Shown: positions 207 through 17,655 of the stretch, one piece after another
Layout of the letters: the number at the start of each line of letters is the position of its first letter
Position numbering within the stretch: the first letter of the stretch is position 1
NCBI GenBank assembly: GCA_016933365.1
Contig: JAFGBB010000012.1
Span: 1 to 39,280, forward strand
Direction of reading: 5' to 3'
DNA from: Candidatus Wolfebacteria bacterium
GTDB lineage: Bacteria; Patescibacteriota; Minisyncoccia; UBA6257; UBA9933
Length of the DNA: 39,280 nt
The notes under the pieces: model-generated
The model's database searches: none
The model's input: the letters and a program-made list of their open reading frames with translations, nothing else
What the model was told of the DNA's origin: nothing
Program-made: the position numbers and the translations under genes

Positions 207-235
207 TTGCTTTACTTTTTTAAAAATAGTAAAAT
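207..235 (+). promoter_or_regulatory. Candidate sigma70-type promoter placed for a leaderless transcript
   Basis: TTGCTT (207-212), 17-nt spacer, TAAAAT (230-235). The ATG at 242 lies 6 nt downstream of the -10 box. No Shine-Dalgarno motif. Confidence 0.4.
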
Positions 236-241
236 TAATAC

Positions 242-661
242 ATGGAACAAGATTCAAATATTATTAATCAATCTAATGTTTCCGAATTGCCAAAATCAGA
301 AGTGAGTGTTAGAACAATGAAATTGGATATTAAGAATTTAGAACAAGGAGGAGGTGAAATTGGCGCGCCTGAATATTTGACTTCAGAACAAGTAGGAGTA
401 AAAAAAGAAGAAAAAGAAAATAAGTTTAAAATTTCCGGATATATGGGTCCGGAAAAAGCGATTTTTTCTTCTTCTGGTCTTTCTCTTAAAAAAGAAGATA
501 TTCTCCCTAAAAAAGATGAAGTTTCTGAGGAAAAAAAATCTTTAAAATGGAAGATTTTAGGAATTATTATTATTGCTTTAGCAGTTATAGTCGGTTTTGG
601 ATTTTTGGGATATTTCGTAATTTCTAAGCTTTTTTTTCCAAATGAAATGCCTTCTGTATAA
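242..661 (+). CDS. Hypothetical tail-anchored membrane protein
   Basis: 139-aa ORF with a Lys/Glu-rich hydrophilic N-terminal part and a single C-terminal TM helix (ILGIIIIALAVIVGFGFLGYFVI). Confidence 0.7.
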   Translation: MEQDSNIINQSNVSELPKSEVSVRTMKLDIKNLEQGGGEIGAPEYLTSEQVGVKKEEKENKFKISGYMGPEKAIFSSSGLSLKKEDILPKKDEVSEEKKSLKWKILGIIIIALAVIVGFGFLGYFVISKLFFPNEMPSV

Positions 662-693
662 AAAAATCAAATTTAAAATTTAAATTTATTATT

Positions 694-1026
694 ATGGATA
701 TAAAAATTTTATTACAATTTAAAAATCAGTTAATAAAAACAGGAAATATTTTAAAAGAAAAAATAAAAGAACTTTCTAAGGTTCCGGAATTTGGCGAAGA
801 CGTCAGCGCTGATGACGAAGAAAGCAATGAGACTGAAGAATTTGGCAATCAACTTTCTGTTGCTCAAAATTACAAAGAACAATTAGCAGAAATTGATAAT
901 GCTCTAAAAAAAATAGAAAGCAAAGAATATGGAATTTGTGAAAAGTGCGGAGAAGAAATTTCTTTAGATGTTTTAGAGGTTGCTCCGGAATCGCGTTTAT
1001 GTAAAAAATGCAAGAAATTGTCTTAA
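694..1026 (+). CDS. DksA/TraR-family C4-type zinc-finger protein
   Basis: 110 aa with an acidic coiled-coil region followed by CxxC-17 residues-CxxC (CEKCGEEISLDVLEVAPESRLCKKCKK), typical of the DksA/TraR/YteA family. Confidence 0.8.
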   Translation: MDIKILLQFKNQLIKTGNILKEKIKELSKVPEFGEDVSADDEESNETEEFGNQLSVAQNYKEQLAEIDNALKKIESKEYGICEKCGEEISLDVLEVAPESRLCKKCKKLS

Positions 1027-1116
1027 GCTGCGAATTCATTTTAATTCGGAAAAATCCGAATAAAAATTATTTGTAGATATTTACGAGTTTTTATAATTCG
1101 CAGTTTTCGGGTTTAA

Positions 1117-2655: not shown

Positions 2656-2668
2656 ATTTTTTTAAATC

Positions 2669-2697
2669 TTTACTTTATAAGGAAAAATCTGTATAAT
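2669..2697 (+). promoter_or_regulatory. Candidate promoter of the envelope-machine cluster
   Basis: TTTACT (2669-2674), 17-nt spacer, consensus TATAAT (2692-2697) preceded by TG. The ATG at 2706 is 8 nt downstream. No SD. Confidence 0.45.
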
Positions 2698-2705
2698 TTA
2701 AGTTA

Positions 2706-3785
2706 ATGAAACAAATAAAAGCTACAATTGGTGTTTTTATTTTTGTTGTAGCGCTTTTAATATTTTTTTTAAATTTTAAAACTTTTTCTCCAAATAAAAA
2801 CTTAATTCCCGAGTCTTTAGATAATTCAAAAATTGATTTTAACGAAGAAATTAGTTTAAAACAAGAATTTGGAAGTCCTTTTCAATGGATAGAAGATAGT
2901 CAAAAAACATCTTTATCCGCAATTAATGAATTTTCTAAAATTAAAACCGAAAATTCGCCATTTCAAAAAATAATTGAAGAAATACCATCTTTAACCATAA
3001 GCGAATTGAATTTATTAAGTTTTAATAAAACAAAATTAGTTGAAGAAACAAAAGAACTTGAAAATTATTGGGCTCAAATTTTGGAAATTTGGAACAAGGG
3101 ATTTGGCGAAGAAAAATTTGAATTAATCAAAAAAAATGAACAAGGCAGAGTGTTATCTTTAGAGGAGCTTATTTTAGAGGCTGAAAATAAAGGAATTTCA
3201 GAGGAATTGAAAATTTCTTTTGCGGCTTGGCAAGAGCTTGGTAAAAAAACACTGAAAGACTTAGAAAATGTTTCTATAAATGACGAATTGTCTTCTGCTC
3301 ATCAAGCACTAATTTCTTGGTTTAAATATCATTCCGAGATTGCGGGAAAATTCAGTAAGGAAAATTTATCTTCTGAAGAAATAAAAACTTTATCTTCTCA
3401 ATATATTGAAAAGGCAAAAACCGAACCGCTTAAATTTCAACAAGCATTATCTTTACCGGAAAAATCTTTAACTTCGTTTTTTATTAAAATAGCGCAAGCT
3501 CAAGCAGAGAATGTTTTTTATCATTTTGGCGGATTGATTTCAAGTTATGCCGATTTTTGCACTAATGGTTTTGCTATTGTCGTTTCCGCGCCTAAGGGAG
3601 GATTGCTTTGGATTTATTATCCGGCTTATATTGCTAATCCTTATCTTTATAAAATATTGGCTCCGAGTTATTATGTTTTGGGTCGGGCGATGTGGGGTCC
3701 CGGAATTTGCAATAAAGGACCTTATAATTATGGAATAGGCGCTGCTCAGATTTTGTTTTTTGGTTCTTCGGGAACACCCCTTTAA
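2706..3785 (+). CDS. Membrane-anchored extracytoplasmic protein (cluster gene 1), paralog of the next gene
   Basis: 359 aa with an N-terminal TM helix (IGVFIFVVALLIFFL). Shares the PFQWIED motif with the next ORF. Aromatic/Gly-rich C-terminus (YYPAYIANPYLYKILAPSYYVLGRAMWGPG). Confidence 0.8.
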   Translation: MKQIKATIGVFIFVVALLIFFLNFKTFSPNKNLIPESLDNSKIDFNEEISLKQEFGSPFQWIEDSQKTSLSAINEFSKIKTENSPFQKIIEEIPSLTISELNLLSFNKTKLVEETKELENYWAQILEIWNKGFGEEKFELIKKNEQGRVLSLEELILEAENKGISEELKISFAAWQELGKKTLKDLENVSINDELSSAHQALISWFKYHSEIAGKFSKENLSSEEIKTLSSQYIEKAKTEPLKFQQALSLPEKSLTSFFIKIAQAQAENVFYHFGGLISSYADFCTNGFAIVVSAPKGGLLWIYYPAYIANPYLYKILAPSYYVLGRAMWGPGICNKGPYNYGIGAAQILFFGSSGTPL

Positions 3786-3828
3786 AAACTGTTTCAAAAA
3801 CTATTTTTATTTTATATAATTAATAATA

Positions 3829-4671
3829 ATGAAAAAAGAAAAAATAGCCGCTATGATTTTAATTATTTTTGCCGGAATCGCTGGCTCTTATTTTATTATT
3901 AAAAATTCAATGCCTCAAGTTAACGAATTTGGCAATAAATTAATTTCCGAAGAGAATAAATTATCAATAAAAAACCCTATTCAATGGGTAGAAGAAGGTA
4001 TTTCAAATATAATGAATTTTATGAACGAAACAGAACAAATTGCTCAAGCGGAAGAAAATTTAACCCAATCATTTAGTCAAATACTTTCTGAGCAAATTAA
4101 ACTTAAAAATCAAAACGGATTGACTCAAAAAGATGGCGAAGTAGCTATTTCAGCGCCAAACGAAGAAATGCTTTCTCAAGAGCTTTTAGAAGAATTAATG
4201 TCTAATAATTTATCCGATGAAAATACAGAACTTTATCATCCAATGATAAATGAAAATAAATTTAAAATTTCTCAAAACGTTTCAGCGGAGAATCAAGTTC
4301 AATATTTAAAAAACCTTGAAAATATTAGTCAAAAAAAACTTGAGGGATTTAATAAAACAGACGTGGAAATTTTAAATACCATAGCGGAAACCGGAAATTC
4401 TTCCTCGGCCCGAGAATTGGCAAATCTTTATGAAGAGATGGCAAATGATTATTATACCGTAACTATTCCGGTAAATTGGGTTGATTTTCATAAGGCGCTT
4501 CTTTCTCATTTTTATTCCGCGAGTTTTGCTTGGAGAGCAATTGCTAATTTTGAAGAAGACCCTTTAAAAGCTTATTTGGCAACTCAAGCTCTTTCCGCTT
4601 TAGAAGAATCATCTTTTGGAATTCAAGTTTTAATGTCAAATGGAATATTGGAAAATAATTTAAATTTTTAA
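3829..4671 (+). CDS. Membrane-anchored extracytoplasmic protein (cluster gene 2), paralog of the previous gene
   Basis: 280 aa with an N-terminal TM helix (IAAMILIIFAGIAGSYFII). Motif PIQWVEEG is equivalent to PFQWIED in the upstream ORF, and the two share a H.ALLSHF / H.ALISWF segment. Confidence 0.8.
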   Translation: MKKEKIAAMILIIFAGIAGSYFIIKNSMPQVNEFGNKLISEENKLSIKNPIQWVEEGISNIMNFMNETEQIAQAEENLTQSFSQILSEQIKLKNQNGLTQKDGEVAISAPNEEMLSQELLEELMSNNLSDENTELYHPMINENKFKISQNVSAENQVQYLKNLENISQKKLEGFNKTDVEILNTIAETGNSSSARELANLYEEMANDYYTVTIPVNWVDFHKALLSHFYSASFAWRAIANFEEDPLKAYLATQALSALEESSFGIQVLMSNGILENNLNF

Positions 4672-4677
4672 TAAATT

Positions 4678-6267
4678 ATGTTTAAAAAATTAGTTTTAAT
4701 AATTATTATTCAGTCATTAGTTTTATCTCCTTTATTATTTATGCCTGAAAAAGCCGAAGCTCAAGAAAATTTAGGTGAAATAATTGCTAATTGGATGTCT
4801 AATTTAGGTATATTTACAGGCGTTACTCAAAGCGCCGCCAGCGCCGCGGATGCTCAACGTTCAATAACGGTTCCGATATTTGATGTGGTTGGATATTCTC
4901 AGCTTAGAGCGGTGGAAACAGCTAAGGCAGGAAAAGAAACAAAAGACAATATAGTTCAAGAATTATTCAGTATATTTTTAGAATCTTTACGAAGAAAAAT
5001 TTTAGATACAGTGGTTAATGATATTATTAAATGGGTAAATGGCGGCGAAAATGGTAAACCTCAATTTATTAGTAATTGGGGAGAATTTTTAAAAGACGCG
5101 GCTAATGAAGCAATTAGCGAAGTAGTTCTTCAAACAGACGCGGCTTTTCTTTGTTCGCCTTTTAAGGCTCAAATTCAATTTTCCCTTTTACCCGTGCCTG
5201 AATTTTCCCAATTTTCTAATAGATTGGGATGCACTTTAGACGATGTAGTTGATAATATTGAAAATTTTTATGAAGATTTTGAAAACGGCGGTTGGATTGC
5301 TTATAACGAATCTTGGCAACCCCAAAATAATTATTATGGTCAGTTATTGATGATTAATGATGAAATGAATTATCAGGTGGTAAAAAGACAGCAAGCGGTT
5401 CAGAATGAAGCTTTAGCTGGCGGAGGATTTTTATCGGTTAAAAGATGTAAAGGTGGCGGATATAGCTTTTCTCAATTAGATGCTATGGAATATTTTTCTC
5501 CGGGCTCCTCCGGAAGTTATGTAAAGGATTCAAATGGAAATTATTGTCTTCCGGAAGATATGGAAGACATTACTCCGGGAACGGTTGTGGGCGAGATGGC
5601 TTCTAAAGCAATAGGTGCTGATATTGATTATATTTTAAGCGCTAAAGAGCTTGAACAATATGTTGCCGCTATTACTAACGCGCTTATTAATCGCGTGGTT
5701 AAAGAGGGTGTTCAATGGGTTCAAGAAATTTCCCAAGAAGAAAAAGAAGAACAAGAAAAAGACATTAGCGTTTATACTAAACCTTACGAAGACGGTTTAA
5801 CTGAAATTCAAACGCAAGAAAAAGAAAGAATTATTGATGAATATGAAAAGGTGCTTAATGATCGCAACGCGGTTTTAGAATATAAAGAAGATTCGTTTTC
5901 TGTTTCAGAACAAATTTTAGCTATTTTTGAAGGACTTAAAAATAGCAGATGCGCTTTTTCCGCTATTCAAGAAAATATTGATAGCGCTAAAACCGAAATT
6001 GATAGATTAGAAACAGAAATAGAAAATATTAAAATTTTAATTGATGAGATTGAATCTTTAAAAAATGAAGCTGAAGAAACTTCTTCTGACTATCGCTTAC
6101 AAGAAATGGATACTTTAAATAATAATTATATTAAATTTCTCAATAAATATGATGATTTTATAATTCAGATTTATTCCAAGGAAGACCAAGAAGCCGCAGA
6201 AGAAGAAGCTCAAAATAAAAAAGAAGAGTTATTAAATATTCAAGAATTATTTAGCGCTTGTATTTAA
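4678..6267 (+). CDS. Secreted protein with C-terminal coiled coil (cluster gene 3)
   Basis: 529 aa with a signal-peptide-like N-terminus ending AEAQ, a central globular region with several Cys, and a Glu/Lys-rich heptad-like C-terminal third. No family recognised. Confidence 0.8.
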   Translation: MFKKLVLIIIIQSLVLSPLLFMPEKAEAQENLGEIIANWMSNLGIFTGVTQSAASAADAQRSITVPIFDVVGYSQLRAVETAKAGKETKDNIVQELFSIFLESLRRKILDTVVNDIIKWVNGGENGKPQFISNWGEFLKDAANEAISEVVLQTDAAFLCSPFKAQIQFSLLPVPEFSQFSNRLGCTLDDVVDNIENFYEDFENGGWIAYNESWQPQNNYYGQLLMINDEMNYQVVKRQQAVQNEALAGGGFLSVKRCKGGGYSFSQLDAMEYFSPGSSGSYVKDSNGNYCLPEDMEDITPGTVVGEMASKAIGADIDYILSAKELEQYVAAITNALINRVVKEGVQWVQEISQEEKEEQEKDISVYTKPYEDGLTEIQTQEKERIIDEYEKVLNDRNAVLEYKEDSFSVSEQILAIFEGLKNSRCAFSAIQENIDSAKTEIDRLETEIENIKILIDEIESLKNEAEETSSDYRLQEMDTLNNNYIKFLNKYDDFIIQIYSKEDQEAAEEEAQNKKEELLNIQELFSACI

Positions 6268-6272
6268 AATAA

Positions 6273-8279
6273 ATGAATTTTTTAAAATTTAGAAAATTTA
6301 AAAAATGGAAAGCTATTTTATTTATTTTGGTGGCGGTTGTTTTTTTCGGAATTGAAAGTTTAAAAATTACTTACGCTCAAAATGGTTTTATTGAAAGCAT
6401 TGCGACTAAAGCGATTGGTTGGGTGGCTGGGGCTATGGGTTATATTGCCGGTTATATTGCCGGAGCTGTTTTTTATATTGGGGGACTTCTTATTAATTTC
6501 GCTTTAGATTTTAATAACGCGATTTTAGGAGACGGCTCTATTGTTCATGTTGGTTGGCCTATTGTTCTTAGTTTTGCCAATTTGGGATTTGTTTTGGCGA
6601 TTATTATTATTGCTTTTGCCACTATTTTTCGCGTACAAAGTTACGCGATGAAACAAATTTTATGGAAATTGGTTGTGGCGGCGCTTTTGGTGAATTTTAG
6701 CTTGGTAATTGCCGGCGCTTTTATAAATATTGCCGATATGGCTACGGAAATTTTTATCAGCAAATCAATGCCTGAAGGAAAAACCGATTTTTCCGAAACT
6801 TTAGGAGGGTTGTTTAAGGCTCAACAATATTTAAAAGCCGATGAAATAGCGGTTGCCAATAATACGCTTGAAGGATTAAAAGAATTTGGCGGCGCGCTTT
6901 TAGGTTTTATAGCTCAAAATTTTTTTACTGCCGCGTTTACTTTTTTAGGGGCTTTAACTCTTTTAGCAATAGCGATAATGTTAATTATTCGTTATATTAC
7001 TTTGGCAATTCTTTTAATTTTGTCGCCTTTGGCTTGGCTTTTATGGATATTTCCATCCACTCAAAACTTATGGCAAAAATGGTGGAGTAATTTTTTCCGT
7101 TGGACTTTTTTTGCTCCGGCGGTTTCATTTTTTCTTTATTTGACTGTTATATCAATAAAAAATTATTCAGAATACGTTGATGTATTAATATTTAAAGGAG
7201 GAGTTGACGCCGGTAGTCAAATGTCGCCTGTTTTAAACGCGAGCATAATTGGAAATTTGGTATTGGTAATAGGTTTATTAATAGGAGGATTAATTACGGC
7301 TAATTCTTTAGGTATAGCTTTTGCCAATACAAGTTATGGTTGGGCTAAAGGCGTTGGTAAAACTTTTAGCGGTTGGGTTGGAAGAAAAGGAGTTGCGTTT
7401 GGCACCAGACCTCTTCGCGGTGAATGGGGTAGAAATATTACTGAAGGAATGCAAAAAACCGGTTTAGAAACAGGTCGTGTTGGACGATTTATGACTTCGC
7501 CAATAAGGCAATTAGGAACAGTTATTAGTGGCGCGGGAGTAAGACAAGGAGAAAGCTTGGTTAAAGATGCTGAAGGAAGATTAAATAAACGCTTTGTTAC
7601 GGATAAAAGTTTGGCAGACTCTTTTTCAACATTAAGCAGGGAAGAACAAGTCGCCGCCGTTAAAAGGCTTACTAAAAATAAGACAACAAATTTAATGGAT
7701 GAACGAGATTTAAATTATTTTATTGGGAAAAAAGACACAAAAAAAATATTTGAAAGATTTGGAGCTGGAAATGTTTATGATGATTTTGAAAAATCAGCGG
7801 GTCGCAATACTAAAATGGTAAATAGTAAATCGTCTCAAGAAAAAGAATCGGCGGCAAAAGAATTTTTTAGAGGATTTAGTCAAAAAGATTTTAGCGCGAT
7901 TAGAAAGAATTCTTTATTATCAGATGAAGATAAAGAAATTAGAATAAAAGCAATACTTGAAACTCAGCCCGGAGGTATAAGAAAAGTAATGCCTAATTTT
8001 TCAGGCAAAGATTTTGATAAATTCTTAAATACGATGAAAGAAGCATTACCGGAAGAATTAAAAATTTCAATTACTACCGGTCTTGTGGATAATAATAATA
8101 AACCAATTATGAAAGAAAAAACAGTTTCCCGAAGAGATGCGACCAAAGACGATATTTTGTCATATTTTAAAGAAAGCAACGCGGAAGTTTATAAGGTTTT
8201 ATCTAAAAGCTTTAATGATCGCTTAATGGGTTTTGAGGAATTTAGTTCTTCAGATTTCAGTTCTTCAAAAGAATCGTAA
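6273..8279 (+). CDS. VirB6/TrbL-like polytopic membrane protein with long hydrophilic C-terminal tail
   Basis: 668 aa with at least 6-7 hydrophobic segments in residues about 15-350, then about 300 hydrophilic residues. The VirB6/TrbL assignment rests on topology and position next to VirB3/VirB4-like genes, not on a verified alignment. Confidence 0.6.
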   Translation: MNFLKFRKFKKWKAILFILVAVVFFGIESLKITYAQNGFIESIATKAIGWVAGAMGYIAGYIAGAVFYIGGLLINFALDFNNAILGDGSIVHVGWPIVLSFANLGFVLAIIIIAFATIFRVQSYAMKQILWKLVVAALLVNFSLVIAGAFINIADMATEIFISKSMPEGKTDFSETLGGLFKAQQYLKADEIAVANNTLEGLKEFGGALLGFIAQNFFTAAFTFLGALTLLAIAIMLIIRYITLAILLILSPLAWLLWIFPSTQNLWQKWWSNFFRWTFFAPAVSFFLYLTVISIKNYSEYVDVLIFKGGVDAGSQMSPVLNASIIGNLVLVIGLLIGGLITANSLGIAFANTSYGWAKGVGKTFSGWVGRKGVAFGTRPLRGEWGRNITEGMQKTGLETGRVGRFMTSPIRQLGTVISGAGVRQGESLVKDAEGRLNKRFVTDKSLADSFSTLSREEQVAAVKRLTKNKTTNLMDERDLNYFIGKKDTKKIFERFGAGNVYDDFEKSAGRNTKMVNSKSSQEKESAAKEFFRGFSQKDFSAIRKNSLLSDEDKEIRIKAILETQPGGIRKVMPNFSGKDFDKFLNTMKEALPEELKISITTGLVDNNNKPIMKEKTVSRRDATKDDILSYFKESNAEVYKVLSKSFNDRLMGFEEFSSSDFSSSKES

Positions 8280-8296
8280 TTTAAAATTTTAAAAAT

Positions 8297-10240
8297 ATGT
8301 TAAAAATTTCAAGACAACAAGTATTAAATAGATGGGATACGCTTTCAAATAAATTTAAAGAAGCGTTATTTTCTGAATATAATTATGATTTTTTATTGCA
8401 AATTTGCGAAAAGCAACATTTAACAGAAGATAAAATCCGAAAAATAGCTATTTTAGTCGGGGACGTAATTTTCGGTTTTCTTCATCCGGAAGATTTAGCT
8501 AAAGAAATTAAAAACGAACTTAATATTAATCAAGAGATAGCCAGTTCAATTGCTGAAGAAATTGATAAAAAAATTTTTTTATCCATAAGAGATGAATTAG
8601 AAAAGGTTTATCAACCTCCAGTGAAAGAAACTGTTTTAGATTTAAGAAATAAAGTTGCCGGTCAATCGGAATTGAATAAAAATTCAATTGGCGATTTAAA
8701 AATTATTGAAGAAACTGAAAAAAAGGTTGAATCTTCAGAAAATAAACCAATAGAAAAACCGATTATATCTAAAGAAAAATTGCAACCGGAATCAAAAATT
8801 TCGGAAAAACAACCGCAAAAACCGATATCTATTTCTCAGAAAACTTCTTTAATAACAGATAAGATTTCACCGCTTGATTCTGAGTCTGCGATAACTCCTT
8901 CGGAAATTTTTGGAGGAGCAAAGCCGGTTTCTATTGGGGAAATTAAATCTGTTAAACCGGAAGCTTCTGAAGACGCGCCTTTAATTATTCAAAAAGAAAC
9001 GAAATTTAAACCTATTTCCGAAAGTAAAAAATCTTTAGGCGGACTATTTAATTTTTTAATAAAAGGCAAAGAAAAAGAAGAAAAACAAGCCCCTGTAAAA
9101 GCCAAAATTGAAATAGGAGGATTTAAAAAAGAAGAACAAAAAATAGGGACTACCCCCAAATTATTAGAAAAATCCATTGAAGAAAAAAAAGAACCTCTTA
9201 AGGTTAATTTTTCGTTTGGGTTTGAAAAAGAAAAAATAAAACAAGTTCCACAAAAAAATTCCTTTATTAAGTTTATATCTAATAAAATTAAAAAACCAAA
9301 AGAAGAACAATTATTTAATAAAAGTAAATCCATATCTTTGCCCTTAAATCAATCAATTGATAAAAAAGAGCAAACTTCGCAAGGTTTTAAACCATTAATA
9401 AATACGGAAATTAAATCTTTAAATCAAACAAAAAAAGATGAATTTAAGCCTTTTGTTTCAATCCCTAAAAAAGAAACGTCGTCCGCGTCTAAACAGCAGG
9501 TAAATTATTCAGAAGAACAAATATTAAATAAAACTGAAAAACTTAAAGAAAATTCTTTAATAAATTCCACTGGAAAGTCTTTTGTAAAAATAAAAAAAGA
9601 CGAGAACAAACCCAAAATAATGGATTTTTCAACGGAAATTGGAAAAGATAAAGATAAATCATTAACAAAAAATCCTTTAATCAATTTTAAAAAAGACAAT
9701 AATGATAAAATATCTATGGTAGATAAGATTGAATCGGATAAAATAAAATTCGTTAATTATGCCGATATGGGAGAAAAAAATAAGTCTCTTGAAAAATCTC
9801 AACAACAAAAAGAAATAAAATTGCCCATTGAAAAGCCTTTAAATGAATTAGTAAAAAAACCATCAATAAATTTAATTCCCAAAAAACAAGGAATAATTTC
9901 TAAATTTTTTTCTAAATTTAAAAAAGAAAAATCTTTACAAAACAAAGCTCAAATTAAACCCGAAGCGTCTGTGGCAATAGAAACAAAATCGTCCGCAAAT
10001 CCTTTAACGGAATTTAAAAAACAAAAAAACAAACCGTTTACAATAAACGAATCTGAATTATTTGAGACAAACAGGCCGGGAATTTCAAATTTATATAATT
10101 CTTATAAAGAAAAAGATGAAAAAAATGAAATAAAACCAAATGAATTTCAAAAAAAGACAGAAACCGTTTTGCCCGAAAAAAAAGAAGAAAAAAAGGAAAA
10201 GGATAACGAAGAGCTAATTGATTTAAAAAAATTTGGTTAA
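8297..10240 (+). CDS. Lys/Glu/Ser/Pro-rich low-complexity protein with ordered N-terminal domain
   Basis: 647-aa ORF. The first ~105 aa look globular (LHPEDLAKEIKNELNINQEIASSIAEEIDKKIF). The remainder is strongly K/E/S/P-biased with no hydrophobic core. Confidence 0.75.
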   Translation: MLKISRQQVLNRWDTLSNKFKEALFSEYNYDFLLQICEKQHLTEDKIRKIAILVGDVIFGFLHPEDLAKEIKNELNINQEIASSIAEEIDKKIFLSIRDELEKVYQPPVKETVLDLRNKVAGQSELNKNSIGDLKIIEETEKKVESSENKPIEKPIISKEKLQPESKISEKQPQKPISISQKTSLITDKISPLDSESAITPSEIFGGAKPVSIGEIKSVKPEASEDAPLIIQKETKFKPISESKKSLGGLFNFLIKGKEKEEKQAPVKAKIEIGGFKKEEQKIGTTPKLLEKSIEEKKEPLKVNFSFGFEKEKIKQVPQKNSFIKFISNKIKKPKEEQLFNKSKSISLPLNQSIDKKEQTSQGFKPLINTEIKSLNQTKKDEFKPFVSIPKKETSSASKQQVNYSEEQILNKTEKLKENSLINSTGKSFVKIKKDENKPKIMDFSTEIGKDKDKSLTKNPLINFKKDNNDKISMVDKIESDKIKFVNYADMGEKNKSLEKSQQQKEIKLPIEKPLNELVKKPSINLIPKKQGIISKFFSKFKKEKSLQNKAQIKPEASVAIETKSSANPLTEFKKQKNKPFTINESELFETNRPGISNLYNSYKEKDEKNEIKPNEFQKKTETVLPEKKEEKKEKDNEELIDLKKFG

Positions 10241-10250
10241 TTTAATTAAT

Positions 10251-10763
10251 ATGCAATTTCAAGTACCTCAATTTATTGAAGTTGAAAATAAAATTATTGG
10301 TCCGTTGACTATGAAGCAATTTATTTATCTTGCCGCGGCGGGAGCTTTTAGTTTTATTTTTTATTTTATTTTAGAAGTTTGGCTTTGGTTTATTTTAACC
10401 GCGATAATAGGAGGAGTCGCGGTGTCTTTAGCTTTTATTAAATATAATGGCCAACCTTTACCCAAAATAATTATGGCGGCTTTTGGTTTTTTTTGGAAAC
10501 CGAAATTTTTTCTTTGGCAAAGATTAGAAGAAAAAAGAACTGTTTCCGTGGAACAAGAAAGAAAAATTCTTGGAAAATTTTTTGCCGAAACTCCGTCGGT
10601 TAAAAAACTTTGGCAAGATTTAATGACGACAAAAAACCCGATTCCTAAAAGGGAAAGAGGATTGGGAGTTCCGTTTTTGGGAAAACAAGCAAAAGAAAGA
10701 TTTCAATTATTTAGAAAAGCGACTGGCGAACGCGAGATTGCCAGAAGAGTTGATTATAGATAA
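10251..10763 (+). CDS. PrgI-family (VirB3-like) T4SS membrane protein
   Basis: MQFQVPQFIEVENKIIGPLTMKQFIYLAAAGAFSFIFYFIL followed by a second TM helix, which is the characteristic PrgI-family N-terminus. The ORF-track start at 10233 is TTG and overlaps the upstream stop. ATG 10251 is preferred. Confidence 0.75.
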   Translation: MQFQVPQFIEVENKIIGPLTMKQFIYLAAAGAFSFIFYFILEVWLWFILTAIIGGVAVSLAFIKYNGQPLPKIIMAAFGFFWKPKFFLWQRLEEKRTVSVEQERKILGKFFAETPSVKKLWQDLMTTKNPIPKRERGLGVPFLGKQAKERFQLFRKATGEREIARRVDYR

Positions 10764-10787
10764 AAAGTATAAAAATTCAATTTTAAA

Positions 10788-10817
10788 TTGTGAATTTAAA
10801 ATTTTACATTGTATAAT
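10788..10817 (+). promoter_or_regulatory. Candidate internal promoter upstream of the VirB4 N-terminal ORF
   Basis: TTGTGA (10788-10793), 18-nt spacer, consensus TATAAT (10812-10817). The ATG at 10824 is 6 nt downstream. Confidence 0.35.
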
Positions 10818-10823
10818 ATATTT

Positions 10824-11447
10824 ATGCCTAAAGAAGCTCAATCAACCCAACAATTTGTTGAAGTGGAAGAAATAAAAGATGACGTGGTAATTTTAAAAAA
10901 CGGTTCTTTGCGTCGGCTACTTATGGTTTCCGGAATTAACTTTGAATTAAAATCAAAAGAAGAGCAGGATATTATCACTTATTCTTATCAAAATTTTTTA
11001 AACACTTTAGATTTTTCAGTTCAAATTATCATTCATTCCAGAAAGTTAAATATTGAGAATTATCTTGTTAAATTAGCTGACAGGCAAGGGGTTGAAAATA
11101 ATGAATTGTTAAAAAACCAAATTTCTGAGTATATAGAATTTATCAGGTCTTTTGTGGAATTAAACGCGGTAATGGCAAAAACTTTTTTTGTTGTTGTTCC
11201 TTACGACGCAATGTCAATATCTTCAGGAGGAAAAAAACTGCTTGGTATTTTCGGTTTTGGAAAAAATAAAACAAAATCGTCTTTAGACCAAACACTTAAT
11301 CAAAAAATAGTTCAGTTAAACCAAAGAACAGAACAAGTAATTAGCGGATTAAGCCAAATAGGATTACGAGCCGTGGCATTAGAAGGAGAGGAATTAGTTG
11401 AATTATTTTATAATCTTTACAATCCGGAATCAAAGGAGAAAAAATAA
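10824..11447 (+). CDS. VirB4/TrbE-type N-terminal domain encoded as a separate ORF
   Basis: QQFVEVEEIKDDVVILKNGSLRRLLMVSGINFELKSKEEQDIITYSYQNFLNTLDFSVQIIIHS matches the N-terminal region of Gram-positive VirB4/PrgJ/TcpF-type ATPases. ATG 10824 is preferred over the TTG at 10809. The ORF is in the same frame as the next ORF. Confidence 0.7.
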   Translation: MPKEAQSTQQFVEVEEIKDDVVILKNGSLRRLLMVSGINFELKSKEEQDIITYSYQNFLNTLDFSVQIIIHSRKLNIENYLVKLADRQGVENNELLKNQISEYIEFIRSFVELNAVMAKTFFVVVPYDAMSISSGGKKLLGIFGFGKNKTKSSLDQTLNQKIVQLNQRTEQVISGLSQIGLRAVALEGEELVELFYNLYNPESKEKK

Positions 11448-11477
11448 TTTATTAACGCATTAATTATATAATTTATT

Positions 11478-13223
11478 ATGAATGAAAATATAAAAACGCC
11501 TCAAGTTTATAAATCCGGAGAAAAAAATATCCGAGATGTAATTGCGCCGGCAGGTATGGAAGTAAATCCCGGTTATTTAAGACTCGGAAATAAATTTGTT
11601 AAAACGATTTTTATTTTTACTTATCCGCGTTATTTAGCTAGCGGATGGTTTAATCCAATTATAAATTTGCCCGAATTAATGGATGTTTCTATTTTTGTTC
11701 ATCCGATTGACACCGCAATGGCTTTAAGAAATCTTCGTAAAAAGACTGCTCAAATTGAAGCTCAACTTATTGACCGTCAAGAAAAGGGACTGGTAAGAGA
11801 TCCTGTTTTAGAGACCGGATTTCAAGATATTGAAACGCTTAGAGACCAACTTCAACAAGCTCAACAAAGAATGTTTAATATCGGAGTTTATATAACTATT
11901 TACGCTGATACATTAGAAAAACTTGAAAAACTGGAAGAAAGATTAAATTCTTTATTTGAAGCTCAATTAACTTATGCTAAACCGGCGCTTTTTCAGCAGT
12001 TAGAAGGTTTTACTTCAACCTTGCCTTTAAATTCAGATAAAATTTTAATAAATGCTCCTCTTAATTCCGGTCCGGCTTCTTCATTATTTCCTTTTGTTTC
12101 CGTGGATTTAACCTCGGATGAAGGAATTCTTTACGGTATTAATCGTCATAATAATACTTTGGTTATTTTTGACCGTTTTTCTCTTGAAAATGCCAATTCT
12201 GTTCTTTTTGCAAAATCCGGAGCAGGAAAATCATACGCTTGTAAATTAGAAATAATTCGTTCTTTAATGATGGGAGTTGATGTTTTAGTTATTGATCCGG
12301 AAAATGAATATGAAAAATTAGCAGAATCGGTTGGTGGAAGTTTTTTCAAAATATCTTTAACTTCAGAAACTCAAATAAATCCATTTGACATTCCCATTGT
12401 GCCTAAAGGCGAATCCGCGGCAGATATTTTGAAATCGCATATTCTTAATCTTGCCGGACTTGTTAAATTAATGTTGGGAAAAATTACCCCTGAAGAAGAA
12501 GCAATTTTAGATAAAGCTTTAACAGTAACTTATGAGTCTCGCGATATTACTCCTGACAAAAGCGATTTTTCAGATATTAAACCTCCTCTTTTGGAAGATT
12601 TTCAAGTTGTTCTTGAAAGTATGGAGGGAGGAGGCGGTTTAGCTAAAAGACTTGAAAGATTTACAAGGGGAAGCTATGCGGGCTTTACCAATAAACAAAC
12701 AAATATTGATATAAAAAACCGTTTAATAGTTTTTTCAGTTAGAGATTTAGAGGAAGAATTAAGACCGATTGCTATTTATATTATTTTGAATTTTATTTGG
12801 AATTTAATAAGGGCTGATTTTAAAAAACGAATTATGATAATTGATGAAGCTTGGTGGTTAATGAAATATCCAGACAGCGCGTCTTTTCTTTTTTCTTTGG
12901 CAAAACGTTGTCGGAAATATTTTTTAGGATTAACAACTATTACTCAAAATGTTGAAGATTTTTTGGAATCGCCTTATGGTAGACCAATAATTACAAATTC
13001 AGCTCTTCAACTTCTTTTAAAACAAGCGCCGGCGAATATTGATGTCGTGGCAAAAACTTTTAATCTTTCAGAAGCGGAAAAACAGTTATTACTTGAAGCT
13101 AATGTGGGGGAAGGAGTTTTCTTTGCTGGCTTAAAACATGCCGCTATTCAAATTATTGCTTCTTATTTTGAGAATAAAATAATTACCACTAAACCCGAAG
13201 AAATATTGGGAATGGATGAATAA
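11478..13223 (+). CDS. virB4: VirB4-family T4SS ATPase (central and C-terminal ATPase part)
   Basis: 581 aa with Walker A AKSGAGKSY and Walker B IMIIDEAWWL. Also has the conserved YPRYLASGWF segment and a TTITQNVEDF motif typical of VirB4/TraC/CagE-type ATPases. Confidence 0.85.
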   Translation: MNENIKTPQVYKSGEKNIRDVIAPAGMEVNPGYLRLGNKFVKTIFIFTYPRYLASGWFNPIINLPELMDVSIFVHPIDTAMALRNLRKKTAQIEAQLIDRQEKGLVRDPVLETGFQDIETLRDQLQQAQQRMFNIGVYITIYADTLEKLEKLEERLNSLFEAQLTYAKPALFQQLEGFTSTLPLNSDKILINAPLNSGPASSLFPFVSVDLTSDEGILYGINRHNNTLVIFDRFSLENANSVLFAKSGAGKSYACKLEIIRSLMMGVDVLVIDPENEYEKLAESVGGSFFKISLTSETQINPFDIPIVPKGESAADILKSHILNLAGLVKLMLGKITPEEEAILDKALTVTYESRDITPDKSDFSDIKPPLLEDFQVVLESMEGGGGLAKRLERFTRGSYAGFTNKQTNIDIKNRLIVFSVRDLEEELRPIAIYIILNFIWNLIRADFKKRIMIIDEAWWLMKYPDSASFLFSLAKRCRKYFLGLTTITQNVEDFLESPYGRPIITNSALQLLLKQAPANIDVVAKTFNLSEAEKQLLLEANVGEGVFFAGLKHAAIQIIASYFENKIITTKPEEILGMDE

Positions 13224-13264
13224 GAATTAATGGATAAGTTTTAATCTTTTAAAATTAATTTATT

Positions 13265-13618
13265 ATGGAAAATACAGAGAAAAAAATTTCATTGCCGGAA
13301 ACAATTCTTTTATTGTTATATATCGTGCCTCTTGACGGTGTTGGAGTAATTCTTCTTTTAATTGGATTAGACGATTTTTTCATTCTTGATGCTTTAACCT
13401 TTCCAGTTACTCAATTTTATTTTAGAATAAAAGGAGTAAAATCAACATATGATTTAATTGCCGGTATATTGGAATTAATCCCTTATATTGGCGCTCTTCC
13501 CATAAAAACCACGGGTGTTTTAATAACAATTTGGATGGCTAATCACCCAAAAACAACAGAATCAGTCGGTAGTATATCAAATATTATAAAAAGTAGTTCT
13601 GGAGCCGTTGTTAAATAA
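13265..13618 (+). CDS. Small integral membrane protein (cluster gene)
   Basis: 117 aa with about three hydrophobic helices. No family recognised. Confidence 0.7.
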   Translation: MENTEKKISLPETILLLLYIVPLDGVGVILLLIGLDDFFILDALTFPVTQFYFRIKGVKSTYDLIAGILELIPYIGALPIKTTGVLITIWMANHPKTTESVGSISNIIKSSSGAVVK

Positions 13619-13621
13619 AAA

Positions 13622-14320
13622 ATGATAAAACAAAATTATAAAATTTTTATTACGATAATATTCTTAATGTTTTTTGCGTTTTTAAATGTTAATGCTCAAA
13701 GTTTTTCTCCTCAATTTTTAATTTCTTGGCAGGCGCAAAATTATGCCCCGACCTGGTATCAAGGCAAAATTTTCCCCGTGAGAGGAACTCCTGTTGAGGT
13801 TAATTTTGAAATAGTTAATAATGGTAAATTAGTTGACCTTTCAGACGTTAAAATTCTTTGGTATATTAACGATGAATTGGCAAAAAATGAAAAAGACGGT
13901 TTGGGAATTAAAACTTTAAAATTTAATGTTTCTGATTATGGCGGAGGCGAAGTTGAAATAAGAATAGTTTTACCTGATTATTTAGAGGGTGAATTATTAG
14001 ATAAAATAATTAAAATTCCAATAGTAATGCCCGAATTGGTAATAAATTCTCCTTATCCTGATAATAAAGTTGAAATTGGAGAATCATTTTTTCAAGCAAT
14101 TCCGTTTTTTTTCAACATTGAATTTATTGATATTCTTTCTATAGATTGGACTGCCAATAATCAAAAATCAATCGGTTTAGCGGAAAACCCTTATTTACTT
14201 AACTTAAATATTAGTTCAGAAACCCCTAAAAATACCGAAATAAATATTTCAGCTTTGGTAAAAAGTATTTTAAATAATTTAGAATTTGCCAATAAAAGCA
14301 TTAAGTTAAACGTGAAATAA
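13622..14320 (+). CDS. Secreted protein (cluster gene)
   Basis: 232 aa with a signal peptide ending NVNAQ and a beta-rich composition. The start lies 4 nt after the upstream stop. Confidence 0.75.
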   Translation: MIKQNYKIFITIIFLMFFAFLNVNAQSFSPQFLISWQAQNYAPTWYQGKIFPVRGTPVEVNFEIVNNGKLVDLSDVKILWYINDELAKNEKDGLGIKTLKFNVSDYGGGEVEIRIVLPDYLEGELLDKIIKIPIVMPELVINSPYPDNKVEIGESFFQAIPFFFNIEFIDILSIDWTANNQKSIGLAENPYLLNLNISSETPKNTEINISALVKSILNNLEFANKSIKLNVK

Positions 14321-14328
14321 AATTTATT

Positions 14329-15168
14329 ATGATTAATAAAATAAATATTAAAAAAGATATTATTGGATTATTTGTTTTCTTTTTCCTTTTTTCTTTTCTT
14401 TTTTTTAATGTTCAAATTTCTTTTGCGGCTGATGAAAATTCAGTAATTAGCGTTAGTTGCGCCAAATATAATTATCCTTGGTGTAAAGAAATTAATGAGG
14501 GATTTGGCGCTTTGGTAAATAATTTTTATACTATTTCTTTGGGATTAGTTGGGGCTTCAGCTTTGGGAGTTTTAATTTATGGAGCGATTTTATGGACGCT
14601 TTCCGGAGCCGTAACCTCAAAACAGGACGCCTTACAATGGATTTGGGGCGCTGTTTGGGGATTAATTCTTTTAATGGGAGCGTATTTAATTCTTAATACT
14701 ATAAATCCTGATTTGATTGATTTAAAAGAACCGGAAATAAAACAAGCGACATTATCGGAAATAAAATTTTCAGGATGGAAACCAAAAGAAGAAACAACAA
14801 ATACAATAAGATATAATTTTGATGCTAAAGGCGAACAATATAATACTCGAGAAAAATGCGAAGCAATAGGTAAAAGAATGTGTGGCGATAATTTTATAGG
14901 GGCTATTTTTAATGAAAAGACGCTTTGTACGGTAGTTTGTAAAAAAGAAAAACAAGCAAGCTCTACGGAAAATGAAGAAGAAAAACCTATGCAATCATTA
15001 GAAGTTTGGGAGGGCAAAATTACGTGTAATGGAACAGGAGGGCTTGCCACTAATGATTGCAGTGGTTTTAGTCAAGAAAATTGTAATGTTAATTGTCAGG
15101 CCGAAATAAAAGATAAATGCGTTAATGGCGGGATAATAAGCTCTTCGTGTAGGATGGTGGAAAATTAA
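14329..15168 (+). CDS. VirB2/TrbC-type T4SS pilin-like protein with Cys-rich C-terminal extension
   Basis: Signal/TM segment, then a two-helix hairpin LGLVGASALGVLIYGAILWTLSGAVTSKQDALQWIWGAVWGLILLMGAYLILNTI, which resembles T4SS pilins common in CPR and Gram-positive systems. It is followed by ~140 extra residues, the last ~105 of which contain 10 Cys. Confidence 0.65.
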   Translation: MINKINIKKDIIGLFVFFFLFSFLFFNVQISFAADENSVISVSCAKYNYPWCKEINEGFGALVNNFYTISLGLVGASALGVLIYGAILWTLSGAVTSKQDALQWIWGAVWGLILLMGAYLILNTINPDLIDLKEPEIKQATLSEIKFSGWKPKEETTNTIRYNFDAKGEQYNTREKCEAIGKRMCGDNFIGAIFNEKTLCTVVCKKEKQASSTENEEEKPMQSLEVWEGKITCNGTGGLATNDCSGFSQENCNVNCQAEIKDKCVNGGIISSSCRMVEN

Positions 15169-15183
15169 TTATTTTTTTAGAAA

Positions 15184-16311
15184 ATGAAAAAAACCGTAAT
15201 CATAATTATCATTGTTTTAGGCGTTCTTGCCATGGGATCGGGTATTTATTTTGCCTGGAGAAAAACCTCTTCAATTTTAACTCCGCCCTTGGGGTCTTCA
15301 ATAGAAGGAGGCTCTTTTTCTGTAATTGAAACAGATATTCCGGAAAATTTAGCTTTAAAAATGAAAATTCTCAATGATCAACCAGCTTTAAATTATTTGG
15401 TTTTTCAGGATTCTGAAAATGGCGAATCAATCTTTTATCTTAATAATGAAGGAATGATTTTAAAAACTGAAGAAGATAAAGACGATGAGATTATAGTTCA
15501 AGAACCGATTGAAAATATTCAATCAATAAAAGCTTCAGCCGATGGCAAGAGAATGATTATTAAATCCGGAGATTTATCTTATCCTAATTTTGTGATTTTT
15601 AACGTTGAAGAAAGAATTTTTGAAGTTTTACCTGAAAATATTACATCTGTTGATTTTTCTCCGGACGCTGAAAGCGTGGCTTATTTGAAAATTAACGGAG
15701 AGAAAAGCGATTTAATCATAAAAAATCTTATTAATACAAAACAAAAAGATATTAATATAATTTCAATTTATCAAAAAGATTTTAATCTTGATTGGATTTC
15801 ATCTTCAAAAATAGTTTTAAGTCCTAAATTTTCAGCTTTTAATTTATCTTCAAATTGGATAGTTGATATTTCTAAAAAAACCATTAATCTTTGGGGAGAA
15901 GAAGCTTATGGTTTAATAACTAAATGGGCTCAAAATGGAGAAATAGGATTGCGTTTTTCTTCGCGCTTAAAAGGAAGAGAAGCATTTTTAAATTTAATAA
16001 ACATAGATGGTCAAATTCGGGCAAATATTAGTTTTCTTACTTTGCCGCAAAAATGTTTTATTGCCGACCCTAAAATTTATTGCGCTATTCCAAATTCTAT
16101 ACCGTCAAAAACGGTTTTACCTGATGATTATTTTAAGAAAGCGTTTTATTCCATAGATTCTTTTTATCAGATTGATGTTAATGAAAATTCACTTTTGGAG
16201 ATTTTTACCGAAACAGACCCCGCTATTGACGCGATAAACTTAAATTTAGTTGGAGATAAACTCTATTTTATTAATAGGTACGATAATGGTATTTATAGTT
16301 TGGAACTATAA
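15184..16311 (+). CDS. Membrane-anchored extracytoplasmic beta-rich protein (last cluster gene)
   Basis: 375 aa with an N-terminal TM helix (VIIIIIVLGVLAMGSGIYFAW). Segments such as DFSPDAESVAYLKINGEKSDL resemble TolB/PD40-type propeller blades; this is tentative. Confidence 0.75.
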   Translation: MKKTVIIIIIVLGVLAMGSGIYFAWRKTSSILTPPLGSSIEGGSFSVIETDIPENLALKMKILNDQPALNYLVFQDSENGESIFYLNNEGMILKTEEDKDDEIIVQEPIENIQSIKASADGKRMIIKSGDLSYPNFVIFNVEERIFEVLPENITSVDFSPDAESVAYLKINGEKSDLIIKNLINTKQKDINIISIYQKDFNLDWISSSKIVLSPKFSAFNLSSNWIVDISKKTINLWGEEAYGLITKWAQNGEIGLRFSSRLKGREAFLNLINIDGQIRANISFLTLPQKCFIADPKIYCAIPNSIPSKTVLPDDYFKKAFYSIDSFYQIDVNENSLLEIFTETDPAIDAINLNLVGDKLYFINRYDNGIYSLEL

Positions 16312-16326: not shown

Positions 16327-17655
16327 GTGAAACGCTTTTTTCAAAAAATATCTCTTTACGCAAGGCTTCCGGAAATGCGATTGTTCTGGTTTTTTTTGCC
16401 ATTTTTAGTTATTTTGTTGGCAATTAATATTTTTTATCTTCCTCAGATTTGGGTTTTTATCAGTTTAATTATTTTTTTGGTTTTAGGCGCTATAATTTTA
16501 GTAAACAATCTCCGTTTTGCTCATTCAAATATGGAAATAAAAATTGAACGCAATCAATTAAAAAGCATTATTTTTAATCTCAGCGATGGAGTTATTGCTT
16601 ACGACCCTAATTTTAAAATTCTTATTTTTAATCGGGCGGCTGAAGAGATTTTTAATCTTAAATCAGAAAAAATTATAAATAATTATTTTAGTCCGGAAAA
16701 AGCTCAGGAAACAAGCTTAAAATTGCTTACTCAGGTTATTTTTCCTTCTTTAGCTCCCGTTGTTGTGCGTCAATCAAGTCCTGGAATTTACCCTCAAATA
16801 ATTGATTTGTCTTTTGATGAACCTGGAATTGAACTTCGCGTTTCTACTGATAAAATTTTTGATTCTCATGGTCAGCTTTTAGGTTTTGTAAAAATTATTC
16901 ATGATAGAACCCGAGAAGTTGAACTTTTGCGTTCAAAAACGGAATTTATAGGCGTGGCTTCTCATCAATTAAGAACGCCTTTAACCGGTCTTCATTGGGC
17001 ATTAGAGTCTTTAAATAAACAAAGTCTTGAAGATAGCTCTAAAGATTTGGTTGATATGGCATTAAGCGCTTCAAGCAAACTTTTGAAAACTGTTAATGAT
17101 TTACTTGATGTTTCAAAAATTGAAGAAGGAAAATTCGGTTACAAATTTGAGAATATTGATATTATAAAATTTATTGAAGATATTATTGAAAGCATAAAGG
17201 ATTTTGCCAGACAATTTGGAGTTAAAATTTATTTTCAAAAACCGGAAGAGCAACAAATAATTGTTTCAATTGATTCTCAAAAATTATCAATGGTTTTTTC
17301 CAATTTACTTGATAATGCCATAAAATATAATGTTCAAAATGGTCAAATAATTATATCTTTAGAAAAAACCAAAGAACAACCCTATATACAGATTAGTATT
17401 AAAGATACCGGAGTTGGTATTCCTCCAGATCAATTTGATAAATTATTTACTAAATTTTTCCGAGCTGAAAATGTTGAAAGAATTTCTACCGAAGGAACGG
17501 GCTTAGGGCTTTATATTGCTAAAAATATTATTAAACGTCATGGTGGAGAAATTTGGGTAGAATCAGAGCTTAATCGGGGCAGTGTTTTTTATTTTACCTT
17601 ACCTCTTGATCCGAATTTAATTCCAGCAAAAGAAATAACTTATGGAGAAATATAA
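16327..17655 (+). CDS. Sensor histidine kinase (TM - PAS - HisKA - HATPase_c)
   Basis: 442 aa with a GTG start and two N-terminal TM helices. PAS-like LSDGVIAYDPNFKILIFNRAAEEIF, H-box ASHQLRTPL, N-box LLDNAIKYN, and G-boxes DTGVGI / GTGLGLYIAK. No response regulator is adjacent. Confidence 0.9.
   Translation: MKRFFQKISLYARLPEMRLFWFFLPFLVILLAINIFYLPQIWVFISLIIFLVLGAIILVNNLRFAHSNMEIKIERNQLKSIIFNLSDGVIAYDPNFKILIFNRAAEEIFNLKSEKIINNYFSPEKAQETSLKLLTQVIFPSLAPVVVRQSSPGIYPQIIDLSFDEPGIELRVSTDKIFDSHGQLLGFVKIIHDRTREVELLRSKTEFIGVASHQLRTPLTGLHWALESLNKQSLEDSSKDLVDMALSASSKLLKTVNDLLDVSKIEEGKFGYKFENIDIIKFIEDIIESIKDFARQFGVKIYFQKPEEQQIIVSIDSQKLSMVFSNLLDNAIKYNVQNGQIIISLEKTKEQPYIQISIKDTGVGIPPDQFDKLFTKFFRAENVERISTEGTGLGLYIAKNIIKRHGGEIWVESELNRGSVFYFTLPLDPNLIPAKEITYGEI

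Follow-up and report, generated by a model that had tools for sequence, protein, structure and literature searches.

The DNA analysed in this work (the window) is the entire 39,280-bp contig of a metagenome-assembled genome (MAG) of Candidatus Wolfebacteria (class Paceibacteria). Its region 2706–16311, on the forward strand, very probably encodes a chromosomal, vertically inherited type IV secretion system (T4SS) of the Patescibacteria clade, derived from the monoderm MPF-FATA conjugation machinery. This identity is proposed because the set formed by VirB4, TrsD, PrgI/VirB3, VirB6 and a pilin, the absence of a relaxase nearby and the housekeeping context match the systems described by Quiñonero-Coronel et al. 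in 2025 (PMC12102498). The locus is a further example of the Patescibacteria T4SS published between 2023 and 2025, not a new kind of system.

According to the 2025 survey, VirB4 is present in 2,417 of 3,035 Patescibacteria genomes, as a clade nested within MPF-FATA; its most abundant partner is TrsD, PrgI/VirB3, VirB6 and VirB2-like pilins are encoded near virB4, and the systems are chromosomal (PMC12102498). Two Wolfebacteria genomes among the loci compared here (L010 and L025) belong to the dataset of that survey and are marked there as VirB4-positive. In Saccharibacteria, the T4SS was found by transposon sequencing to be essential for epibiotic growth, the locus of Southlakia epibionticum being SEML1_0006–0019, and the authors remarked on its pilins and on the lack of a coupling protein and a relaxase (Wang et al. 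2023, PMC10633639). These systems are counted among the most interesting newer members of the T4SS superfamily, and a 2025 review, which calls them 'perhaps the most exciting newcomers', puts forward uptake through a pilus conduit (PMC12857230). A 2026 preprint describes a cultivated Minisyncoccota parasite which feeds on host RNA and displays tubular structures that may be T4SS pili, and it likewise proposes such a conduit for uptake (10.64898/2026.06.21.733656). The initial annotation of the region, made from the letters of the DNA, had proposed a stripped-down, non-conjugative T4SS for attachment, uptake or delivery, and this coincides with the published view (PMC12102498, PMC10633639, PMC12857230).

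Core components of the machine

The ORF listing shows twelve forward-strand open reading frames (ORFs) of at least 100 aa in the region: 2706–3785, 3829–4671, 4678–6267, 6273–8279, 8297–10240, 10233–10763, 10809–11447, 11478–13223, 13265–13618, 13622–14320, 14329–15168 and 15184–16311, numbered here g01 to g12 in this order. The spacers between them are, in the same order, 43, 6, 5, 17, −8, 45, 30, 41, 3, 8 and 15 nt. Thirteen tightly spaced ORFs on one strand had been announced by the initial annotation; the single strand and the tiny spacers stand, while the count is twelve and no spacer has room for a thirteenth. The spacer of about 60 nt placed by the same annotation before the N-terminal ORF of VirB4 holds when the ATG at 10824 is taken as the start of that ORF. 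Concerning hydropathy, the proteins of 359, 280, 529, 232 and 375 aa display one N-terminal hydrophobic segment each, and the 668-aa protein (g04) at least six transmembrane (TM) segments. The PrgI-like protein, the 117-aa protein and the pilin have either a hydrophobic hairpin or several TM segments, and hydrophobic segments are absent from TrsD, VirB4 and the 647-aa protein rich in K and E. This agrees with the earlier description of envelope proteins throughout, bar the ATPase-related ORFs and the K/E-rich protein. Scans for regulatory signals were uninformative: promoter-like sites in this AT-rich DNA numbered 96, versus 76 ± 9 in shuffled sequences, and terminator-like sites 15, versus 11 ± 4, none of the latter being intergenic.

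The conservation of the locus was followed in the best 80 VirB4 loci, with one genome per species (the relatives). Some counts refer to the subsets with at least 8 kb of upstream flank (42 relatives), with downstream flank (47) or with both (28). The four T4SS hallmarks previously named, VirB4, PrgI, VirB6 and a pilin, all survive this analysis, the first two firmly, the pilin firmly at the family level, and VirB6 through the Pfam matches of its orthologues and its predicted fold.

VirB4 (g08, 11478–13223, +) is an ATPase of the monoderm CD1110/MPF-FATA type. It matches the NCBIfam model conju_CD1110 ('VirB4-like conjugal transfer ATPase, CD1110 family') with 375 bits, above the cutoff of 325, the second-best model being the VirB4 of the Mycoplasma integrative and conjugative element (ICE). 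In Pfam it matches P-loop_TraG (90 bits), plus AAA_10 and DUF87, and both its Walker A (AKSGAGKS) and Walker B (IMIIDEAW) motifs are intact. The NCBIfam matches to CedB (34 bits, cutoff 700) and CedD (19 bits, cutoff 600) involve the P-loop region only. As judged from these profiles, the MPF-FATA affinity of VirB4 appears firm. An ATPase of FtsK/HerA type only, with no support for the pilin, PrgI and VirB6 calls, had been named beforehand as contrary to a T4SS; the match above cutoff and the support described below were obtained instead.

The preceding ORF (g07, 10809–11447, +, alternative ATG at 10824) encodes TrsD, a free-standing VirB4 N-terminal-domain protein. It aligns with positions 9–200 of the 201 of the NCBIfam TrsD profile at 38.5 bits, below the cutoff of 200, and also with the N-terminal ~200 residues of several VirB4 models; one orthologue is annotated as PF26593 (TraC-like). 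A VirB4 in pieces at 10824–13223 had been proposed earlier. The family assignment was correct, whereas the supposed N-terminal piece is the separate, known TrsD, which in other lineages is fused to VirB4. The two ORFs lie in the same reading frame with two in-frame stops between them, and in 12 relatives (L065, L054, L059, L057, L055, L066, L060, L062, L020, L018, L024 and L019, at ~9300–11750 in each) they form one protein of ~770–800 aa. In the remainder they are split at one shared point, the interdomain linker after ...YNLYNPE..EKK.

The in-frame stops could be taken as a sign that the locus is decaying, with VirB4 broken in two and a non-functional system. This explanation is scarcely credible, since the split occurs at the identical linker in dozens of lineages and is replaced by a fusion in 12 others, both parts are well conserved across relatives (36–82% identity for TrsD, 51–92% for VirB4), the ATPase motifs are intact, and TrsD is the commonest Patescibacteria T4SS component and is essential in Southlakia. 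A pseudogene origin of the split VirB4 was rejected on account of the conserved split site, motifs and sequences. On this comparative evidence, the TrsD/VirB4 split is a conserved arrangement and not a broken gene; within Paceibacteria, fusion or fission would either have recurred or mark a deep branch.

The PrgI/VirB3-like small membrane protein (g06, 10233–10763, +, alternative ATG at 10251) matches Pfam PrgI with 41.4 bits, above the cutoff of 27, which bears out the earlier call at 10251–10763. Its gene lies directly 5′ of TrsD/VirB4 in 39 of the 42 relatives with upstream flank.

The VirB2-type pilin (g11, 14329–15168, +) is laid out as a signal peptide, a two-helix hydrophobic core at residues ~59–125 and a Cys-rich C-terminal extension at ~140–279, which contains 10 of its 12 cysteines. 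Among its positional orthologues, 39 of 40 match Pfam T4SS_pilin (best E 8.4e-12), and their lengths vary from 99 to 514 aa. As predicted in the initial annotation, the protein can be assigned to the VirB2-type pilins, an assignment that these orthologue matches make firm at the family level.

Concerning g04 (6273–8279, +), it was called VirB6/TrbL-like at the outset, and the protein is polytopic, with a TM domain at residues ~1–400 and a hydrophilic C-terminal extension. No direct Pfam match was found for g04 itself. Its orthologues match TrbL (16–23 bits) and TrbL_4, many of them carry the precomputed annotation PF19590 (TrbL_3), and g04 has a weak NCBIfam match to CD3337/EF1877. The AlphaFold2 (AF2) model of residues 1–416 (pLDDT 81, pTM 0.73) was compared with the PDB by Foldseek, and the top seven matches were all stalk chains of R388, TrwJ/VirB5-TrwI/VirB6 (8rt9, 8rtd, 7o3v), with probabilities of 0.92–1.00; the best one had E 5.7e-3, probability 1.00 and a TM-score of ~0.44. 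Weak indications from sequence and from the model thus converge, supporting g04 as a VirB6-like protein and upholding the original call.

The conserved module and its unnamed genes

Essentially all of the best 80 VirB4 loci come from Patescibacteria MAGs, a few having been given another label on deposition, and all are of the Patescibacteria type, with 51–92% identity. VirB4 identity amounts to 60–92% (60–86% among the named ones) where the title reads Wolfe-, Jorgensen-, Lipton-, Harrison- or Colwellbacteria, and to 51–54% where it reads Gracilibacteria, Berkelbacteria or Magasanikbacteria. The colinear order is g02-g03-VirB6-g05-PrgI-TrsD-VirB4-g09-g10-pilin-g12, and this 11-gene module (3829–16311) is colinear in Wolfe-, Jorgensen-, Lipton- and Harrisonbacteria. 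At the sensitivity of tblastn, at least nine of the eleven genes occur in the same order in half of the relatives with both flanks (14/28), and all eleven in 4 of them. The whole of 2706–16311 had been presented as one machine; this holds for 3829–16311, while the first ORF is a narrow, lineage-specific addition.

That first ORF, g01 (2706–3785, +), at the 5′ edge of the cluster, encodes a 359-aa protein, anchored or secreted as judged from its N-terminal hydrophobic segment, with no match in Pfam or NCBIfam. It has only 19 homologues among 5.8 billion proteins. A homologue is located directly 5′ of the g02 orthologue in three relatives (L161, L162 and L163), none is present in L081, where KsgA abuts g02, and in other relatives that slot holds KsgA or different genes. 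From this distribution, g01 is a lineage-specific accessory gene. The database entries 100% identical to g01, g03 and g04 (JW698_00925, JW698_00935 and JW698_00940) are titled 'hypothetical protein'.

The conserved module begins with g02 (3829–4671, +), a 280-aa protein, membrane-anchored as judged from its N-terminal TM segment, for which no match was found in Pfam, NCBIfam or PDB sequences. Syntenic orthologues exist in 18 of the 42 relatives with upstream flank. It is followed by g03 (4678–6267, +), a 529-aa all-helical protein with a signal/anchor segment, invariant cysteines C159 and C185, and NGGW and PQNN motifs. Its family is very large, with 2,782 clusters at 50% identity in a profile search at E≤1e-30; its homologues, where named, are 'hypothetical protein' and, with one exception, have no Pfam domain. 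The AF2 model of g03 is of moderate quality (pLDDT 67) with a confident C-terminal helical bundle, and Foldseek against the PDB gave nothing significant beyond helical bundles. VirB5-like and hydrolase identities for g03 were considered and are unsupported by this comparison of a pLDDT 67 model.

Next to the VirB6-like gene, g05 (8297–10240, +) encodes a 647-aa protein with no TM segment, composed of a helical N-terminal domain of ~105 aa and a long low-complexity K/E-rich tail, K, E and D making up 35% of its residues. The N-terminal domain is kept in 23 relatives and the disordered tail is variable; no Pfam or PDB match was found. Downstream of VirB4, g09 (13265–13618, +) encodes a small multi-TM protein of 117 aa, with the motifs KKISLPE, KGVK and ELIP..ALP conserved across 29 syntenic orthologues and no Pfam match in any family member. 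The adjacent g10 (13622–14320, +) encodes a 232-aa protein with a signal-like N-terminus, secreted and probably a beta-sandwich, with orthologues in 30 of the 47 relatives with downstream flank; its only matches are weak immunoglobulin-type ones in the PDB (E 0.05) and one to BiPBP_C. The module ends with g12 (15184–16311, +), a 375-aa membrane-anchored protein with an N-terminal TM segment and a TolB-like beta-propeller. A profile of 33 orthologues matches TolB chains in the PDB at E 6.5e-9, scattered beta-propeller Pfam matches occur among the family members, and the gene is syntenic in 30 of the 47 relatives. When every member of the g09, g10 and g12 families was scanned with Pfam, no family name emerged, and profile searches of g02, g03, g04, the N-terminal domain of g05 and g10 against PDB sequences returned only coiled-coil, weak immunoglobulin or chance matches.

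What is new here is incremental: the TolB-like g12, the very large secreted helical family of g03 and five other conserved or lineage-specific unnamed genes. The value of the locus lies in offering a clean example from Wolfebacteria and in defining an 11-gene module of Paceibacteria, colinear across several lineages, which alternate between split and fused TrsD/VirB4 at a fixed linker. The six unnamed conserved genes of the module are targets for structural and genetic work, with a member of Paceibacteria/Minisyncoccota now cultivated.

Chromosomal setting, competing explanations and proposed mechanism

The initial annotation had recognised no DNA-processing module in the region, and had pointed to a relaxase and a coupling protein immediately outside the window as the finding that would make this an ordinary conjugative element. 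The Pfam scan took in 40 ORFs of the 39-kb contig, nearly all those that reach 100 aa, and the NCBIfam scan 10 of the twelve ORFs in the cluster. Within this scope, no relaxase, VirD4/TcpA-type coupling protein, VirB11, VirB8/9/10 or lytic transglycosylase was detected, and VirB4 was the sole FtsK/HerA-type P-loop protein found on the contig. No match to a VirB1-type hydrolase or a VirB8-like protein (PrgL/TraM) was obtained in Pfam, NCBIfam or PDB sequences with the scanned cluster proteins, folds being modelled for g03 and g04 only. Neither a CedA/CedB pair nor a set of ComB2-4 plus ComB6-10 was recognised, there being no VirB7/9/10-like proteins and just P-loop-level similarity to CedB and CedD.

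The upstream side was examined in relative L081, whose ComM is 84% identical. Its 10 kb upstream contain VanY, DUF5658, P-type ATPase, GreA, pseudouridine synthase, L19, small membrane protein, DksA and ComM genes, and ComM is followed by a TrpR-like gene, KsgA and then the T4SS cluster. Ten ORFs around ComM, of which eight belong to this upstream stretch and two separate ComM from g02, gave no relaxase or type IV coupling protein (T4CP) in Pfam, and no integrase was found either in those 10 kb or on the 39-kb contig. The absence of a DNA-processing module is thus borne out for the whole contig and upstream in L081, where no relaxase and coupling protein lie just outside.

In the window, the cluster is preceded by ComM (1117–2655, +), a Mg-chelatase-like AAA+ competence helicase that flanks the cluster as a housekeeping gene and does not belong to the machine; it matches Mg_chelatase in Pfam with 311 bits, as well as ChlI and Mg_chelatase_C. 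Directly upstream of the T4SS, ComM is accompanied by a gene for a DksA/TraR-type zinc-finger protein (694–2655, +, for the two), and a trio made up of a small membrane protein, DksA and ComM is found again 5′ of the cluster in Wolfebacteria-type relatives found via ComM. The downstream flank comprises a histidine kinase, Fpg, HolA, tRNAs, IF-2, LeuRS and rRNA. GC content is uniform, at ~30%, across the contig, without a compositional island. The PAS-domain histidine kinase (16327–17655, +) follows the cluster after a 15-nt spacer and is kept there in the 8 closest Wolfebacteria loci; no response regulator was seen near it, and it might act as a regulator of the cluster or share a transcript with it. 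In L163 (positions 1–9053), ComM and the g01 homologue are separated by genes for M23 peptidase, UvrD helicase, PaaX-like regulator, KsgA and fn3/PG_binding protein, and a tyrosine-recombinase gene lies at the edge of the contig; this slot is a variable region.

Several other explanations of the locus were weighed against this background. An ordinary ICE, or a remnant of one, whose relaxase, oriT and coupling protein would be at another site of the genome or recently lost, would be in keeping with a VirB4 family named after ICE/conjugative-transposon ATPases, with a relaxase search that covered one contig of the MAG and with the T4CP homologues found far from virB4 in many Patescibacteria. However, the same gene order and housekeeping neighbourhood are found across several Paceibacteria candidate phyla and VirB4 identity tracks taxonomy; besides, only 103 of the 3,035 surveyed genomes have relaxases, with just 15 of these enzymes encoded close to virB4 (PMC12102498). 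The ICE explanation is highly improbable and was rejected, given the conserved housekeeping setting, the lack of mobility genes in the DNA scanned and the uniform GC content. A dedicated DNA-uptake machine, similar to ComB of H. pylori or to archaeal Ced and feeding recombination or nucleotide salvage, is possible though not likely. It would suit the position of ComM, which directly precedes the T4SS here and is found no more than 10 kb before it in 12 of the 42 relatives with upstream flank, as well as comF, recG and radA, which adjoin the T4SS in class ABY1 according to the survey that also proposes import of DNA or macromolecules (PMC12102498), and the lack of nucleotide synthesis in these organisms (PMC11665869). 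The linkage to ComM is nonetheless confined to some lineages, with KsgA, the TrpR-like gene, UvrD and others intervening in some relatives; in Southlakia the T4SS is essential and ComEC-dependent transformation is not; similarity to CedB and CedD is of the P-loop kind indicated above; and no DNA-binding component was identified in the cluster. More doubtful is a system for export of effectors or proteins, or a purely adhesive pilus, to manipulate or hold the host. Wang et al. 2023 prefer protein export or an alternative role, the coupling protein and relaxase being missing (PMC10633639), and the variable Cys-rich surface domain of the pilin suits adhesion, but the cluster has no candidate effector or T4CP-type substrate receptor, and adhesion in Patescibacteria is already ascribed to type IV pili (PMC12102498, PMC12857230).

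The assignment to the Patescibacteria T4SS has its own points to contend with. Its placement in the Patescibacteria VirB4 clade is drawn from identities among the best 80 loci and not from a tree. The sequence matches to VirB6 are sub-threshold, the Foldseek E value is modest, and the stalk-chain matches of g04 are not separable into VirB5 and VirB6; the pilin copy in the window scores 17.5 bits against T4SS_pilin (profile positions 5–71 of 71), short of the 26.6 cutoff. For g02, g03, g05, g09, g10 and g12, the proposed roles derive from synteny and predicted localisation. A distant T4CP or relaxase could be encoded on other contigs of the MAG, and T4CP genes, rarely near virB4, do have homologues far away in many genomes (PMC12102498). 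The published experiments concern Southlakia epibionticum (PMC10633639), with none for any Paceibacteria T4SS, and a 2024 perspective calls the role of these T4SS 'completely unknown' (PMC11665869). All of this weighs against the proposed identity.

With the region taken as a Patescibacteria T4SS, a mechanism can be extrapolated from established T4SS biology. A VirB4 hexamer with TrsD would dock on PrgI and VirB6 in the cytoplasmic membrane and would power the extraction and polymerisation of the Sec-inserted pilin into a short pilus or conduit, which g02, g03, g10 and g12, as anchored or secreted proteins, may scaffold through the wall. On the surface of this filament, the pilin would present its variable Cys-rich C-terminal domain for contact with the host. 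Rather than serve conjugation, such a machine would move macromolecules between host and symbiont, in support of an epibiotic or host-dependent lifestyle. Uptake of host nucleic acids or other molecules is favoured, with low confidence, over effector export. A bolder and improbable variant is a wall-spanning architecture new to T4SSs, in which g02, a disulfide-bonded g03, a cytoplasmic g05 with its disordered tail, g09, g10, the propeller g12 and a pilin with a fused, variable Cys-rich host-recognition domain would import host DNA or RNA towards ComM-type processing; if true, such a machine would be the main feeding organelle of these bacteria.

Apart from the cluster and its neighbours, the contig carries five tRNA genes and many housekeeping genes. 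A 23S rRNA gene, matched end to end (35983–38958, −), and a 5S rRNA gene (34798–34908, −) are present, and no 16S gene is found on the contig. A LAGLIDADG homing-endonuclease ORF (35488–35931, Pfam 44 bits) is located in the 23S-5S spacer of ~1.07 kb, outside the matched 23S. A gene for a ZIP zinc transporter (+) is divided between two overlapping ORFs that differ in frame (28166–28483 and 28378–28911), the second one spanning profile positions 165–321 of 323, which would reflect a frameshift, a pseudogene or an assembly error. An ORF of 1312 aa (22125–26063, −), with no visible hydrophobic segment and no Pfam match at E≤0.1, contains helical repeats of ~35 residues ('EIALKLI...') in its N-terminal half. 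An HNH endonuclease ORF (29043–29516, +) ends where tRNA-Leu(taa) (29516–29599) starts.

Comparison with known systems

The locus resembles the described Patescibacteria T4SS in the clustering of an MPF-FATA-type VirB4, a separate TrsD, PrgI/VirB3, VirB6 and a VirB2-like pilin, in the lack of a relaxase or coupling protein nearby and in the chromosomal housekeeping setting. It differs from them in its accessory set (g02, g03, g05, g09, g10 and the TolB-like g12), which is without a name in the literature consulted. The Saccharibacteria locus has an array of six pilins and, downstream of virB4, genes for peptidase and lysozyme, whereas the present one encodes a single pilin, extended by a long Cys-rich tail, and no hydrolase was recognised in it. 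The neighbours also differ, as the present cluster lies next to ComM and rRNA genes, with neither dnaA nor dnaN seen on the contig.

With MPF-FATA systems (the CD1110 type of CTn2 from C. difficile, Prg/Pcf of pCF10 from E. faecalis and Trs of pGO1 from S. aureus) it shares the VirB4 family, PrgI, TrsD, a VirB6-like protein and the lack of an outer-membrane core (VirB7/9/10). Unlike them, it has no detectable relaxase, T4CP (PcfC/VirD4), VirB1-type hydrolase, VirB8-like protein or PrgB-type adhesin, it is not located on a mobile element, and it includes a VirB2-type pilin, which MPF-FATA lacks. The VirB systems of R388 and Agrobacterium (MPF-T) have in common with it a VirB2-type pilin, a VirB6-like fold (with a modest E value) and the pairing of VirB3 with VirB4, but VirB1, B5, B7–B11 and D4 were not detected here, and the envelope is monoderm.

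Another likeness is to ComB of H. pylori and to archaeal Ced, which are also relaxase-free machines with a VirB4-family ATPase, with import as a demonstrated or proposed use; a competence gene, here ComM, is nearby. Still, ComB has homologues of VirB7–10, and Ced consists of CedA/A1/A2 with the CedB ATPase, to which the present VirB4 bears a weak P-loop similarity.

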